Part shown: piece by piece, positions 30,141-46,455 of the stretch
Layout of the letters: each line of letters opens with the position of its first letter
Numbering within the stretch: position 1 is the first letter of the stretch
DNA from: Patescibacteria group bacterium
GTDB taxonomy: Bacteria; Patescibacteriota; Minisyncoccia; Phycocordibacterales; JBBTRF01
Direction: 5' to 3'
Assembly (NCBI GenBank): GCA_038065315.1
Contig: JBBTRF010000002.1
Location: 12,021 to 76,020 of the forward strand
Length of the DNA stretch: 64,000 nt
The notes under the pieces: generated by a model
The model's input: the letters and a program-made list of their open reading frames with translations, nothing else
Told to the model about the DNA's origin: nothing
Databases searched by the model: none
Position numbers and translations under genes: made by a program

Positions 30141-31953
30141 GGTATTTTTTGTGAGACTGTAGCCAGATTTCCAGGCAGTACAGTACCCAGATCTTGTAAT
30201 GATATTCATCTTTACCCTCGACGTAGAATCGGTGAAGCAATGCCTCGACCGCTTCTTTGTTCATCATTGAAAAGATCTCCGCCTTTGGGTCGGATAGCGT
30301 CTTCTCCACTTCGGTTTTAAATGCGCCTTCTCTTAGCCATTTCTTCACCGGTGCACCAAAGCCTTGCTTGCGACGATGAACGAATTCCTGCGGCATCACC
30401 TCGCCGAGCAGGTCCTTGAGGATGCGTTTGTATGTCGATCCATCGGTTTTGTATTCATCGGGTAGGTTGTACACGAATTCCGCCAGCTTGTGGTCGAGGA
30501 AGGGCGAGCGCACTTCGAGTGAGTTCATCATGCCGGCTCGGTCGGCTTTCACCAAAAGGAGGCCAGGGAGGTAGGTGGTGAGGTCGAAGAGGTTGATCTT
30601 TCGGGCGGATGAGAGGGTCGAATGCGCGACTTGTGTATTGATGATACCGCCACCTTCATTGCTGCTGCCAGGTTGTTTCTTCCACAGTCGTCTTTTTTCA
30701 GATGAACTGAATACGCTGATTGCTCGTATGTATCCAGCAAATGGGCTCAGAAATACTTTCTCAATAAAATTCTTTCGGTACGACAGATGCTTGTGTCGAG
30801 TGTACCAACCATAGCCCAGGAAGAGTTCGTCTGCGCCGTCACCAGAAAGTGCCACCTTCACTTTCTCAGCGGTAGAGCGGGAGAGAAGAAACTGAGGGAA
30901 GTCCGATGAGTCGGCGTGTGGTTCGTCAAAATATGCGAGGGCACTACGGAGCTCGCCAACAGCGTCATCTTTGGCTTGTAGGGGGTAATGTTCGGTACCG
31001 ATCTTCTGAGAAGCCTCGAGGGCGAAGGGGAGTTCGTTGATATAGTTTTGGTACCCGATTGAAAAAGTCTTGATTGGGGTCTTGGAAAAAGATTGTGCGA
31101 GGTGGGTGACCAGCGTGGAGTCTACGCCGCCAGAGAGGAAGGAACCGATCTCTACGTCGGCGATCATGCGCTTGCGCACTGCATCGGTGAGTAGTCTTCG
31201 GACGCCCTCCTTTGCCTCAGCGTATGTCAGTGTTTTTGTGTCGGTTCCGTTCGGTACGGTTTTTTCAAGTTTCCAGTACTGAGAAATCACCAAACGATCT
31301 TCAGTGTTTGTATTCTGAAAATCCAAAGTTGCACAAGACGCCGGTGGTAAGGTGTAAATATTTTTGTAGGTAGTTTTCCATGGCGGGATGTACATCAAGG
31401 TGAGATAGTCGTCGATGGCGGCTGGATTGAGTACGCCCTTTATTTTCCCCGATGCGAAGATTGCCTTGATTTCTGAGGCGAATATCAACGCACCGTTTTG
31501 GTCGTACGCATAATATAATGGCTTTTTCCCAAATCGATCTCGTGCCAAAAAAAGCTGCTGCTTTTCATCATCCCAAATAGCGAAAGCAAACATGCCGTCG
31601 AGATGTTTCGGACACTCAGCCCCGTATTCTTGGTAGGCTTTCAAAATCACCTCGGTGTCTGAATTGGTCGAGAAAGTATGACCTTTTTTTTGAAGCACAC
31701 TGCGCAGCTCGCGATAATTATAGATCTCGCCGTTGAAAGTTACGGTGAGGTTATTTGCGTTGTCCCGCATCGGCTGATGTCCGCCAGAAAGATCGATGAT
31801 CGAGAGTCGTGTTTGCGCTAGGACACATCGGTTGTATCGCGCGATCCCCTTGTCGTCTGGACCTCTCTTGGCTAGTGTGTCGAGCATCGAGCCGAGCATT
31901 CGGTCGTCGTATGTCTCAATGTTTGCGCCGGTAATGCCCAGGATTCCGCACAT
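30127..31953 (-). CDS. asnB: asparagine synthetase (glutamine-hydrolysing), WbpS-type amidotransferase
   Basis: MCGILGI N-terminal nucleophile Cys2, SGGVDST PP-loop. Confidence 0.85.
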   Translation of the reverse strand: MCGILGITGANIETYDDRMLGSMLDTLAKRGPDDKGIARYNRCVLAQTRLSIIDLSGGHQPMRDNANNLTVTFNGEIYNYRELRSVLQKKGHTFSTNSDTEVILKAYQEYGAECPKHLDGMFAFAIWDDEKQQLFLARDRFGKKPLYYAYDQNGALIFASEIKAIFASGKIKGVLNPAAIDDYLTLMYIPPWKTTYKNIYTLPPASCATLDFQNTNTEDRLVISQYWKLEKTVPNGTDTKTLTYAEAKEGVRRLLTDAVRKRMIADVEIGSFLSGGVDSTLVTHLAQSFSKTPIKTFSIGYQNYINELPFALEASQKIGTEHYPLQAKDDAVGELRSALAYFDEPHADSSDFPQFLLSRSTAEKVKVALSGDGADELFLGYGWYTRHKHLSYRKNFIEKVFLSPFAGYIRAISVFSSSEKRRLWKKQPGSSNEGGGIINTQVAHSTLSSARKINLFDLTTYLPGLLLVKADRAGMMNSLEVRSPFLDHKLAEFVYNLPDEYKTDGSTYKRILKDLLGEVMPQEFVHRRKQGFGAPVKKWLREGAFKTEVEKTLSDPKAEIFSMMNKEAVEALLHRFYVEGKDEYHYKIWVLYCLEIWLQSHKKYHVAD

Positions 31954-42841: not shown

Positions 42842-44227
<1,386 letters not shown>

Positions 44228-44250
44228 ACTAGAAGGGGCTTTTTAGGCGC

Positions 44251-44278
44251 TTGCATTTATTTTTGGCTGTCCTATAAT
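44251..44278 (+). promoter_or_regulatory. near-consensus sigma70 promoter (TTGCAT-16-TATAAT) whose predicted TSS coincides with first tandem repeat
   Basis: TTGCAT 44251-44256, TATAAT 44273-44278; +1 predicted about 44285. Confidence 0.5.
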
Positions 44279-44284
44279 TAGTCC

Positions 44285-44448
44285 ACTCTAGCCGTAAATC
44301 CGGCTCCCGAGATTCCTCCCAGCGATGGGATGTTTCGCCAAGCGTTTCGCAACAAGGCCTTCACCTTTTACTTCAGGCATCTTGCGACAACGTAACTCTA
44401 GCCGTAAATCCGGCTCCCGAGATTCCTCCCAGCGATGGGAGGTTTCGC
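44285..44448. repeat. tandem direct repeat, 2 x 54 bp, period 110 bp
   Basis: directly visible in sequence; single t/g difference at unit position 47. Confidence 0.85.
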
Positions 44449-44454
44449 TTTTAT
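44285..44454 (+). ncRNA. candidate about 170-nt small RNA composed of two 54-nt structured direct repeats, ending in intrinsic terminator
   Basis: repeat 1 44285-44338, repeat 2 44395-44448 (53/54 identical); each unit folds AGCCG-uaaauc-CGGCU and CCUCCCA-GCGA-UGGGAGG (GNRA loop); repeat-2 hairpin is perfect and followed by UUUCGCUUUUAU. Confidence 0.4.
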
Positions 44455-44849
44455 AGGCTTCTACGCACTTTCTCTAAGAGTTGTTGAAAAGGGGCCGGTT
44501 CCATTCTCCACATTATTCTCGAAAGTCTTCGAGCACTTATCGTTCTCAGTTGAGAAAAAATAATGCCGTAGTAAATTCCGTCATGGGTGTGTCCATATAT
44601 GTACTGCCCATCTCTCTCCTTGCTTGTTGTCGGAGCGATAAGGAGCTTGTCTCTATTGTACTTCTTCAACACAATTACCGGTCTTTCAAATTTTTCATGT
44701 TTTCCATCTTCTTCTCTCCCGATATTCACCCCTAGACTAGCCCACCACACCTCGCCCTCCTTGAACGGTGTAAAAATTTCAGTTGCGTCCAACGTTTTCT
44801 TTATCGTATTCCACCTGTCGAAATCTTTTTTGTATCCTAGGTCGTCCAT
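44451..44849 (-). CDS. PemK/MazF-family endoribonuclease toxin (orphan; no adjacent protein antitoxin)
   Basis: 132 aa; GEVWWASLGVN...ERPVIVLKKY...LLIAPTTSK...IFSQLRTISARRL matches MazF/PemK core motifs. Confidence 0.5.
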   Translation of the reverse strand: MDDLGYKKDFDRWNTIKKTLDATEIFTPFKEGEVWWASLGVNIGREEDGKHEKFERPVIVLKKYNRDKLLIAPTTSKERDGQYIYGHTHDGIYYGIIFSQLRTISARRLSRIMWRMEPAPFQQLLEKVRRSL

Positions 44850-44920
44850 CTATTCAGCTTAGCAAAACACCGATAGAGAAACTGCCAAGAAAGGTTCAAG
44901 AAATCCCTAATTTCTGATAA

Positions 44921-44959
44921 AGAAAAAATAAAACCCGACGACAAATACTTGTCGTCGGG
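44921..44959 (-). terminator. Rho-independent terminator of GNAT gene
   Basis: 11-bp stem CCCGACGACAA/TTGTCGTCGGG with 4-nt loop, followed on minus strand by U-rich tract. Confidence 0.6.
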
Positions 44960-44965
44960 TTCGCC

Positions 44966-45538: not shown

Positions 45539-45892
45539 GGGATGTGTTTTTTGCAATGAACTACACGGCCGCAAGATCGCTCTTGCTTTTCGAACCGTAC
45601 TGAACGCGGAACAGAAAATCCCGACTTTCGTTCAGTCGGGATTTGTCTAAATAGTATTGGAGTCAGCGATTACTGATTACAATAGGGATTTACACACATT
45701 GCGACTGAATAAAACGGGCTGTCGGTGTCCTTTCGGGACGCGACGAAGACGCCATAGAGGGTGGCGTTTGGTCCGATATTCATATGTTCGCATGGGTAAT
45801 GCATGAGAGTATAATAGCACGGGTGTAAAATAAAGTCAAATACTTTACATACATTAAAAACCATGTTACGGTGGGTCCAGAAAGCTTGAATT

Positions 45893-46291
45893 ATGCCGAC
45901 ACTATACTCACTATCGACCACCATTCCTTTAGATGCCAACGGTAACCCAATAGGCGAAAGTGCCCCAACAACAGCAGAGATCCTCGCGACATCTGGTCTA
46001 CTCCATCTGTTTCTGGGCAGTAGGTTTCTGGTGGAGGACGATGGCGGAGTCCGGAGAGTTCAGGTTGACGAAATGCTGACATTTCCCCTGACTGACACGG
46101 TCAATTTTCACCCAAAAAGTGCGTGCCCTCAATTACTACTCCTTGCGAACCTGGTTCCATTACGGGAAGCCGAGCCAGCGATTGCGGACAGAGAGGCAAG
46201 AACATTTTGTCTCTGCGGAGTCTGTGTTGTATCACAGCAACAATTGAATTTTTACTTCCAAGAGGGAAGACTCAAAGTCCGCATCAGTTGA
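45893..46291 (+). CDS. hypothetical ORF in protein-poor region (doubtful)
   Basis: 132 aa, ends just before intrinsic terminator at 46310-46344; no homology, weak RBS. Confidence 0.15.
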   Translation: MPTLYSLSTTIPLDANGNPIGESAPTTAEILATSGLLHLFLGSRFLVEDDGGVRRVQVDEMLTFPLTDTVNFHPKSACPQLLLLANLVPLREAEPAIADREARTFCLCGVCVVSQQQLNFYFQEGRLKVRIS

Positions 46292-46309
46292 AGGGTTTGT
46301 GTCGAACCA

Positions 46310-46344
46310 CTCCTTGCCCCAGGCAGGAGCGGTTTTTTATTTAC
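46310..46344 (+). terminator. Rho-independent terminator
   Basis: bulged 8-bp stem CTCCTtGCC/GGCAGGAG followed by GTTTTTTATTT. Confidence 0.5.
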
Positions 46345-46455
46345 CTGGATCCTGTGCTTCCGAAGGGATGGATCGGGGTCGTGCAGGATTTTCAGACAAA
46401 GAAAAAACCGCGTGGCGCACTGGGCGTCACGCGGTTCGAGAGTGTCAGTCAGGCT

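Follow-up and report, generated by a model that had tools for sequence, protein, structure and literature searches.

A conserved small RNA encoded tail-to-tail with an orphan PemK/MazF-fold toxin gene in a patescibacterial genome

What keeps a PemK/MazF-fold toxin in check when no protein antitoxin is encoded beside it? The question is raised by a stretch of 64,000 nt from a Patescibacteria group bacterium (GenBank assembly GCA_038065315.1, contig JBBTRF010000002.1, positions 12,021 to 76,020; referred to here as the window), in which the enolase gene (42899-44227, plus strand) is followed by a gap of 223 nt and then, on the minus strand, by a 132-aa open reading frame (ORF; 44451-44849) for such a toxin. 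Within the gap lie two direct repeats of 54 nt each (44285-44338 and 44395-44448). Judged by sequence comparison, the locus is a conserved small-RNA/MazF-toxin cassette, and in this genome its RNA half is duplicated. The RNA is likely to be a functional partner or antitoxin of the toxin, and the role of antidote is favored because almost all relatives found have the RNA gene tail-to-tail with a MazF-type toxin gene that stands alone.

Layout of the enolase-toxin interval

The features of the locus are listed below with their positions in the window; related loci are designated L001, L003, and so on.

44251-44256 and 44273-44278, plus strand: small-RNA promoter, TTGCAT and TATAAT separated by 16 nt, read from the sequence, with the same layout in L003 and L001
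44285-44338, plus strand: RNA unit 1 (repeat family D1 and predicted fold), with hairpin 1 at 44290-44294/44301-44305, CCGAGA at 44307-44312, and hairpin 2 at 44315-44321/44326-44332
44339-44394, plus strand: inter-unit spacer of 56 nt, with TTGCGA at 44382-44387 and no -10 element, about 90% conserved in L003
44395-44453, plus strand: RNA unit 2 (terminator scan), with hairpin 1 at 44400-44404/44411-44415, CCGAGA at 44417-44422, a terminator hairpin at 44425-44442 (GCGA loop), and the tail UUUCGCUUUUA
44451-44849, minus strand: orphan PemK/MazF-fold toxin gene, 132 aa (Pfam PF02452, E = 8e-7; profile, fold, and composition)
44850-44930, minus strand: 5' region of the toxin gene, with weak promoter-like hexamers only (ORF list and terminator scan)

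The repeats had been reported in a preliminary description of this DNA as 53/54 identical, with a period of 110 nt and two predicted hairpins each, and both the repeats and the fold were confirmed. Their sole difference is a T (U in the RNA) at 44331 in unit 1 versus a G at 44441 in unit 2, which gives the latter a full 7-bp stem capped by a GCGA loop. It had also been proposed that this single change perfects the second hairpin into a terminator at the stop codon of a convergent toxin gene, and the terminator scan bears this out, listing 44425-44442 followed by TTTCGCTTTT, with a U-tract (44443-44453) that overlaps the toxin stop codon (44451-44453). Hairpin 2 of unit 1 is weakened by the U at 44331, and since no U-tract follows unit 1, read-through into unit 2 is expected. 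The promoter, which is kept in L003 and L001 and from which transcription is predicted to start at about 44285, had been called near-consensus for sigma70. This is correct for the -10 hexamer, which is perfect, but generous for the -35 hexamer, which agrees with TTGACA at 3/6 positions only; for the latter reason the promoter is missing from the scan made by the prediction tool. As unit 1 lacks a U-tract and unit 2 lacks a -10 element, a single two-unit transcript of about 170 nt is predicted. Comparison with the promoter of L001 (TCTTGCGTC...TATAAT) and with the spacer of L003 suggests that the TTGCGA at 44382-44387 may be a relic -35 element.

At the base of hairpin 2, tandem U-U mismatches (GAUU...UUUC) are present in both units of the window, at 44313-44314/44333-44334 and 44423-44424/44443-44444. 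They recur in approximately 15 of 80 family members from different lineages (columns 64/144 and 65/143 of alignment A3) and may be a conserved noncanonical element rather than noise.

That the convergent gene belongs to the MazF/PemK family, as first described, was confirmed at the levels of both sequence and fold. PF02452 (PemK_toxin) is its sole Pfam match at E values up to 1, and no match was found in NCBIfam or PADLOC. The profile of the toxin family matches EndoA/MazF of Bacillus subtilis (4MDX) with an E value of 1e-7, the invariant R56 of the toxin and its T75 aligning with the catalytic Arg25 and Thr48, respectively; with these equivalents of the catalytic Arg and Thr kept, the active site is predicted to be intact. 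Using Foldseek, the AlphaFold model of the toxin (predicted local distance difference test score of 79) was found to match solved MazF structures from Staphylococcus aureus, B. subtilis, Bacillus cereus, Mycobacterium tuberculosis, and Escherichia coli, those from S. aureus and B. subtilis being the best, and no ToxN-type structure was among the 50 matches listed. The toxin carries an extra N-terminal helix (residues 4 to 22) with an invariant Trp (W13). Its gene has a G+C content of approximately 40 to 43%, versus approximately 53% in the flanks, which indicates horizontal acquisition.

The earlier statement that no protein antitoxin is encoded upstream of the toxin gene also stands: there is no ORF in 44850-44930, and no ORF upstream is conserved across 74 loci. 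At 44931-44962, the terminator of a GNAT acetyltransferase gene closes off the region, and the distance from the toxin start to the tail or stem of this terminator, previously given as 65 nt, was measured as approximately 71 to 81 nt. When ORFs flanking the toxin gene at 74 distinct loci were clustered (up to 450 nt upstream, or starting up to 600 nt downstream), no family was found in more than two to three loci, with a maximum of two for upstream ORFs, and one downstream cluster was an artefact, being the translated RNA itself in six close relatives. In L021, L039, L060, and L064, an ORF of 390 to 680 aa lies upstream of the toxin gene and ends at approximately 2480 to 2501, overlapping the toxin start by 4 nt or stopping shortly ahead of it. 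The ORFs of L039 and L060 have a MerR-like helix-turn-helix N terminus and resemble a methylase subunit of type I restriction-modification systems. The toxin cassette is thus sometimes embedded in defense or restriction-modification contexts.

Orthologous loci show which part of this arrangement is general. The locus of L007, from a Hainich groundwater 0.1-um metagenome, is identical to that of the window, and toxins that are 70% (L003 to L006) and 68% identical (L001 and L002, GCA_037130265.1) are encoded at the same site, tail-to-tail with enolase, with a varying gene on the 5' side of the toxin. Both L001 and L003 retain the RNA between enolase and the toxin. In L003 the two-unit layout is the same as in the window; the terminator of unit 2 has another stem, which is longer and free of mismatches (CCCCUCAGCGCC-AAA-GGCGCUGAGGGG). 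The single unit of L001 is preceded by a promoter of its own (TTGCGT-17-TATAAT) and ends in a U7 terminator. Most relatives likewise carry a single unit, so the conserved object is a single small-RNA gene of approximately 60 nt, and the tandem repeat is a lineage-specific duplication, in which the terminator of unit 1 and the -10 element of unit 2 have been lost. Independent tandem duplications were found in L020, L043, and L060.

An RNA family opposite PemK-like toxin genes

A profile search for the toxin family returned 1,577 protein clusters at E values up to 0.001. A pattern scan of one genome per species gave at least 582 loci encoding toxin relatives, 80 of which were kept (38 to 68% identity), nearly all from genomes of Patescibacteria, or the candidate phyla radiation (CPR), assembled from metagenomes. 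In the 260 nt beyond the toxin stop codon, nearly all loci carry a strong promoter (TTGACA-16/17-TATACT) followed by approximately ACAAAUGGCC-loop-GGCC-(N)-CCGAG-A. Next come a GC hairpin, whose sequence varies, and UCG with a U-tract, which stops at the complement of the toxin stop codon. The RNA is accordingly laid out as a 5' single-stranded leader, a short GC hairpin, CCGAG, a covarying terminator hairpin, and UCG with the U-tract.

The structure was tested on an alignment of 41 units (A2). Paired positions accounted for 91% of the cells, versus 74% in shuffled alignments, and compensatory changes were found in 10 of the 13 base pairs. The covariation score was 0.46 versus 0.17 for shuffled alignments, none of 500 shuffles reaching the former, and slid controls scored 0.08 to 0.15. 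G-U pairs (n = 39) outnumbered A-C pairs (n = 10), and the structured strand is therefore the strand opposite the toxin gene. A sigma70-like promoter scoring at least 9/12 precedes 61 of 71 RNA copies, compared with 5.8% of control windows.

A covariance search for the unit beside mazF/pemK homologues had been suggested in the preliminary description, and it was positive. The covariance model R1 matched the RNA at 74 of 81 toxin-homologue loci (38 to 70% toxin identity, mostly Patescibacteria), always on the strand opposite the toxin. With the exception of a few extra or displaced copies, the matches adjoin the 3' end or stop codon of the toxin gene, and none was found elsewhere in 475 kb. Within the window, R1 matched the two units only, unit 2 with 38.2 bits (E = 4e-8) and unit 1 partially (44293-44337, 15.5 bits). 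Because W2 and L001 sat in the seed alignment of R1, a second model, R2, was built without the lineage of the window; with filters off, R2 matched the window at 44387-44455 (27.4 bits, E of approximately 1e-5), its sole match in the 64 kb, and L001 with 37 bits. Relative to the toxin stop codon, the 3' end of the RNA falls between -5 and +2 nt at approximately 45 of 62 loci, and the RNA overlaps the toxin ORF by 22 to 120 nt at 12 of the 62.

A variant class of the RNA was observed in L045, L060, L064, L069, L078, L080, L082, and L085 (at approximately 2870 to 2960), with the arrangement ACAAAUUGCC-loop-GGCAC-GA-hairpin and an A-rich tail. This class lacks CCGAG and the U-tract, and several of its members were missed by R1. 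The toxin ORF of the variant class is 10 to 15 codons longer and enters the RNA gene, so that here the RNA is antisense to the coding sequence.

The association was also examined in the opposite direction. A metagenome collection was scanned with a degenerate pattern of the RNA, and the 120 loci obtained were rescored with R1. The scores were bimodal, with 16 loci at 47 bits or more and the remainder, chance pattern matches, at 26 bits or less. At 14 of the 16 true RNA loci, a toxin homologue is encoded convergently, 31 to 147 nt away. The other two are L091 (9797-10394), in which a promoter and a full-scoring RNA (47.8 bits) are convergent with an ORF of 145 aa, unrelated and without a match in Pfam, and L141 (1-400), in which an intact RNA gene (57.8 bits) has no toxin and lies near a 45-aa ORF and a tRNA gene. 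L091 may represent a toxin swap, and the RNA of L141 is an orphan antitoxin-like RNA. A second hairpin-plus-U-tract element was also seen in L091, between the RNA and the 145-aa ORF. A phage origin of the motif was rejected, as none of 16 pattern matches on viral contigs proved to be the true motif; phage-borne toxin homologues were found in Campylobacter prophages only.

Comparative analysis across approximately 90 independent loci thus identifies a conserved small RNA, its structure shown by covariation, whose conservation and near-obligate, reciprocal linkage to the toxin are far beyond chance.

How the RNA may act

The reading that we favor, in which toxin and RNA antitoxin form a two-gene cassette inserted at the enolase 3' end and the RNA neutralizes by cis-antisense, is somewhat better supported than not when one compromise grade is given to both of its parts. 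According to this scheme, the RNA gene would begin approximately 60 to 170 nt past the toxin stop codon, on the opposite strand, and be aimed back at the toxin gene; in the window, unit 1 would supply the promoter and unit 2 the perfect terminator of one two-unit transcript of approximately 170 nt. Toxin mRNA would read through the RNA gene and so acquire a 3' end fully complementary to an abundant small RNA, and formation of the duplex would lead to degradation or silencing of the toxin mRNA in a type I-like manner, as reported for the probable homologue cjrA/cjpT of Campylobacter jejuni plasmid pVir. Read-through of the toxin mRNA is expected because, on the toxin strand, the shared hairpin precedes UCUCGG and no U-tract. 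Taken by itself, the proposal that the RNA acts by antisense rather than by protein binding is tentative, falling a little short of an even chance; it nevertheless ranks first, ahead of direct protein binding and, in last place, an improbable role other than that of an antitoxin.

Several points weigh against the antisense scheme. The overlap with the toxin mRNA hinges on read-through, for which the missing U-tract on the toxin strand is the sole indication. Hairpin 1, CCGAG, and UCG are conserved across toxins that are 38 to 50% identical, which a pure cis-antisense RNA does not need, and the motif is kept both in distal duplicates (L020, L043, and L060) and in copies without a toxin (L091 and L141). 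Seven of the 81 toxin loci lack an R1 match, though several of them hold a visibly related variant, and a protein antitoxin may be encoded elsewhere in the genome. Finally, the link to the cjrA/cjpT precedent, a Campylobacter system compared below, rests on CjpT being, as we infer, the PemK-like protein of plasmid pVir.

Pairing in trans with the 5' untranslated region or ribosome-binding site of the toxin mRNA was rejected, as RNAduplex energies of cognate pairs were no better than those of noncognate pairs (mean rank, 29/63; P = 0.17). Since cognate pairing with the toxin 5' region is unsupported, the similarity of the repeat to 17 nt within the toxin ORF (44716-44732; D2) was treated as chance.

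The same conservation that a cis-antisense RNA would not require (invariant GAG and CG, the GGCC hairpin, and the covarying hairpin 2) is what would be expected if, in the manner of type III systems, the folded RNA bound the MazF-fold protein as a pseudosubstrate or inhibitor and blocked its RNase site, an alternative that we regard as possible but on balance unlikely. Duplication would then raise the RNA dose, and the toxin may process the two-unit precursor. Survival of the motif in distal tandem copies with their own promoters and terminators and at two toxin-less loci, as well as the lack of cognate-specific pairing with the toxin 5' region, would fit such a protein-directed RNA. So would the nature of the toxin, an RNA-binding endoribonuclease whose subfamily-specific N-terminal helix with its invariant Trp could be an RNA-binding add-on, and ToxN-type toxins share its superfold. 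Set against this, homologous toxins of the Campylobacterota are faced by convergent RNAs of unrelated sequence that R1 does not detect. Conservation of the convergent geometry without that of the RNA sequence suggests that overlap geometry outweighs a fixed protein-binding motif. Stronger conservation of the RNA than of the toxin gene was not borne out, and the argument was dropped; nucleotide identity is 0.58 for the RNA 5' part versus 0.65 for the toxin gene, and this too counts against protein binding. The closest experimental precedent is classed as type I, and neither a ToxN-family toxin nor an upstream same-strand repeat array is present. In its most far-reaching form, the protein-binding alternative would make the family a large, unrecognized toxin-antitoxin class (at least 1,500 protein clusters, centered on Patescibacteria/CPR) in which a single-unit, structured RNA of approximately 60 nt, and neither a MazE protein nor antisense pairing, restrains a canonical MazF-fold RNase by binding it as a pseudosubstrate. 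This is unlikely; if true, type III would gain a fourth family, unrelated in structure to the others, and a true MazF would have its first RNA inhibitor.

It is improbable that the RNA is no antitoxin at all and that the interval is a shared 3'-end module of convergent terminators, with an unrelated small RNA or antisense promoter travelling with the toxin. Hairpin 2 and the U-tract do form a classical terminator, and the own terminator of enolase is weak; on the toxin strand, the AUUUGU after hairpin 1 could be a weak terminator as well, and the ACAAAU leader would then be conserved partly for this reason. A terminator, however, needs neither a strong promoter 60 nt upstream nor a conserved CCGAG or first hairpin, and the neighbor on the promoter side varies by locus, so the RNA serves no particular neighbor. 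This explanation would also leave the toxin without an immunity factor in hundreds of genomes. Lastly, the suggestion that the repeats arose when a mobile element inserted (as an att or target-site duplication, for instance) or that they encode a small protein, which might be prompted by the low G+C content of the toxin gene and by a 43-aa ORF (44325-44456, plus strand) spanning the spacer, is effectively refuted by the comparative data, as both repeats lie on one side of the toxin gene rather than flanking it, most relatives including L001 have a single unit, base pairs covary across the family whereas no reading frame is kept, and the only conserved downstream ORF cluster is the translated RNA of six close relatives.

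Under the preferred antisense reading as well as under protein binding, the question whether a MazF-fold enzyme can be neutralized by an RNA and, if so, through antisense pairing or through binding comes down to two small, clonable parts. The database label "type II PemK/MazF toxin" implies a missing protein antitoxin, whereas the data indicate that the subfamily travels with a conserved small RNA, and hundreds of "orphan" toxins would be reannotated on this basis. The toxin family is dominant in the Patescibacteria, which have tiny genomes and few characterized regulators. A covariance model is ready for the new RNA family, which has strong covariation and is absent from Rfam.

Elsewhere in the window, a region of approximately 900 nt downstream of the GNAT gene (45540-46450) has a lower G+C content, of 45 to 49%, and contains short overlapping ORFs only. 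It had no Rfam match at E values up to 10, a hairpin at 45616-45644 being a weak chance match to STnc250. Using ARAGORN, no tRNA or tmRNA gene was found anywhere in the 64 kb, and a tRNA or tmRNA origin of the repeat was rejected on these grounds.

Comparison with known systems

Using tblastn, the toxin subfamily was also found on plasmids and prophages of the Campylobacterota. Two articles (PMC10470494; PMC7826846, both citing Shen et al. 2016, Mol Microbiol 101:909) describe CjrA, whose role was established by experiment, as the antisense small-RNA antitoxin of a type I system on plasmid pVir of Campylobacter jejuni 81-176. The sole annotated toxin of pVir is a PemK-like coding sequence (30634-31038), and the pVir toxin and the toxin family aligned in hhalign with a probability of 99.3% (E = 2e-20) over 123 columns that include the N-terminal, W-containing extension; no "CjpT" label was found among the protein cluster names. 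If CjpT is this PemK-like protein, cjrA/cjpT resembles the cassette of the window in having a PemK/MazF toxin of the same subfamily without a protein antitoxin gene. A convergent promoter-plus-hairpin RNA gene likewise ends at the pVir toxin stop codon (L224, pVir 31040-31130). The pVir RNA differs in being longer, with three hairpins and no U-tract, whereas the RNA of the window is duplicated and belongs to a separate, mostly patescibacterial motif family. With filters off, R1 found nothing at the pVir, Nitratiruptor, or Helicobacter loci, Rfam gave no match on pVir, and the geometry alone is shared. The cjrA/cjpT system is probably the nearest experimental precedent or homologue, by which an obscure Campylobacter plasmid-addiction system would be linked to a widespread cassette.

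A promoter and two to three hairpins convergent to a PemK-like toxin gene were identified in L224 (pVir), L225 (1582-1660), L226 (1585-1665), and L228 (1295-1400), which represent Campylobacter, Nitratiruptor, and Helicobacter plasmids and the CJIE4 prophage, and the ends of these RNAs lie at a distance of 2 to 5 nt from the toxin stop codon or slightly within it. Their last hairpin resembles UUGCCC(C/U)G-loop-C(G/A)GGG, and the RNAs are unrelated in sequence to the patescibacterial RNA. On the Nitratiruptor plasmid, a 62-aa ORF (L225, 1655-1843) begins at the RNA promoter, downstream of the toxin gene and on the same strand. Its weak ribbon-helix-helix matches have E values of approximately 0.02 to 0.05, and its product could control plasmid copy number or, in that lineage, serve as a protein antitoxin.

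The type III systems ToxIN, CptIN, and TenpIN share with the window an endoribonuclease of the Kid/MazF-like superfold and a noncoding RNA, with no protein antitoxin, as well as, in this genome, a direct-repeat RNA in more than one copy. The toxins differ, being ToxN/AbiQ in type III systems and PemK/MazF here according to Pfam and Foldseek (PADLOC found nothing). Type III antitoxins, which the toxin processes and binds, are encoded as an upstream, same-strand array of contiguous 34- to 45-nt repeats, set off from the toxin gene by a terminator, whereas the RNA of the window is convergent and downstream, has a 56-nt spacer, and is mostly a single unit in the family. The cassette is not a ToxIN-type type III system, because the two defining features that were tested, toxin family and placement of the repeat array, were both found to differ. 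The preliminary description had proposed a candidate RNA-antitoxin (type III-like) or antisense module. Linkage of the RNA to the toxin at 74/81 and 14/16 loci sustains the module, with "antisense" the better half of the wording; the analogy with ToxI-like tandem repeats had to be given up in view of the single unit of most relatives, the spacer, the MazF-type toxin, and the convergent geometry with 3' overlap.

Closer in arrangement are the 3'-overlapping type I systems, such as txpA/RatA and bsrG/SR4 of B. subtilis and par RNA I/RNA II of Enterococcus faecalis. These consist of convergent genes, with a strong promoter for the RNA and a weak one for the toxin, and, like the cassette of the window, share 3' ends or terminators. 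Type I toxins are usually small hydrophobic peptides, SymE and RalR being exceptions. The systems named here encode small hydrophobic membrane peptides, whereas the toxin of the window is, by its model, a 132-aa soluble protein with the fold of a MazF RNase. Type I antisense RNAs also differ from the RNA described here in not being conserved structured motifs across phylum-level distances. With the type II systems MazEF and PemIK, the cassette shares the toxin fold and the catalytic Arg and Thr; it differs from them in having no MazE/PemI gene, no conserved flanking ORF (74 loci), and an extra N-terminal helix.

The RNA family is not represented in Rfam 15, against which the window region, 22 family loci, and pVir were scanned. 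The pemK motif (RF02913) is named after pemK genes and gave no match at E values up to 10 on the window or on the 22 family members. A weak, subthreshold alignment of RF02898 (AaHKsRNA20, Aggregatibacter small RNA 20) to the canonical form of the RNA in L077 (2886-2954; 24.8 bits versus a gathering score of 43) has AAAU-GCC...GC, CCGAG, and the terminator in common. Neither the window nor nine other members gave this alignment, and no Aggregatibacter toxin homologue was among the best 120 matches of the profile search. In a literature search, no description was found of the patescibacterial RNA motif or of an RNA antitoxin for MazF in CPR bacteria. The cassette is best regarded as a further variation on the RNA-antitoxin theme, with cjrA/cjpT as its nearest precedent, and the RNA family itself is undescribed.

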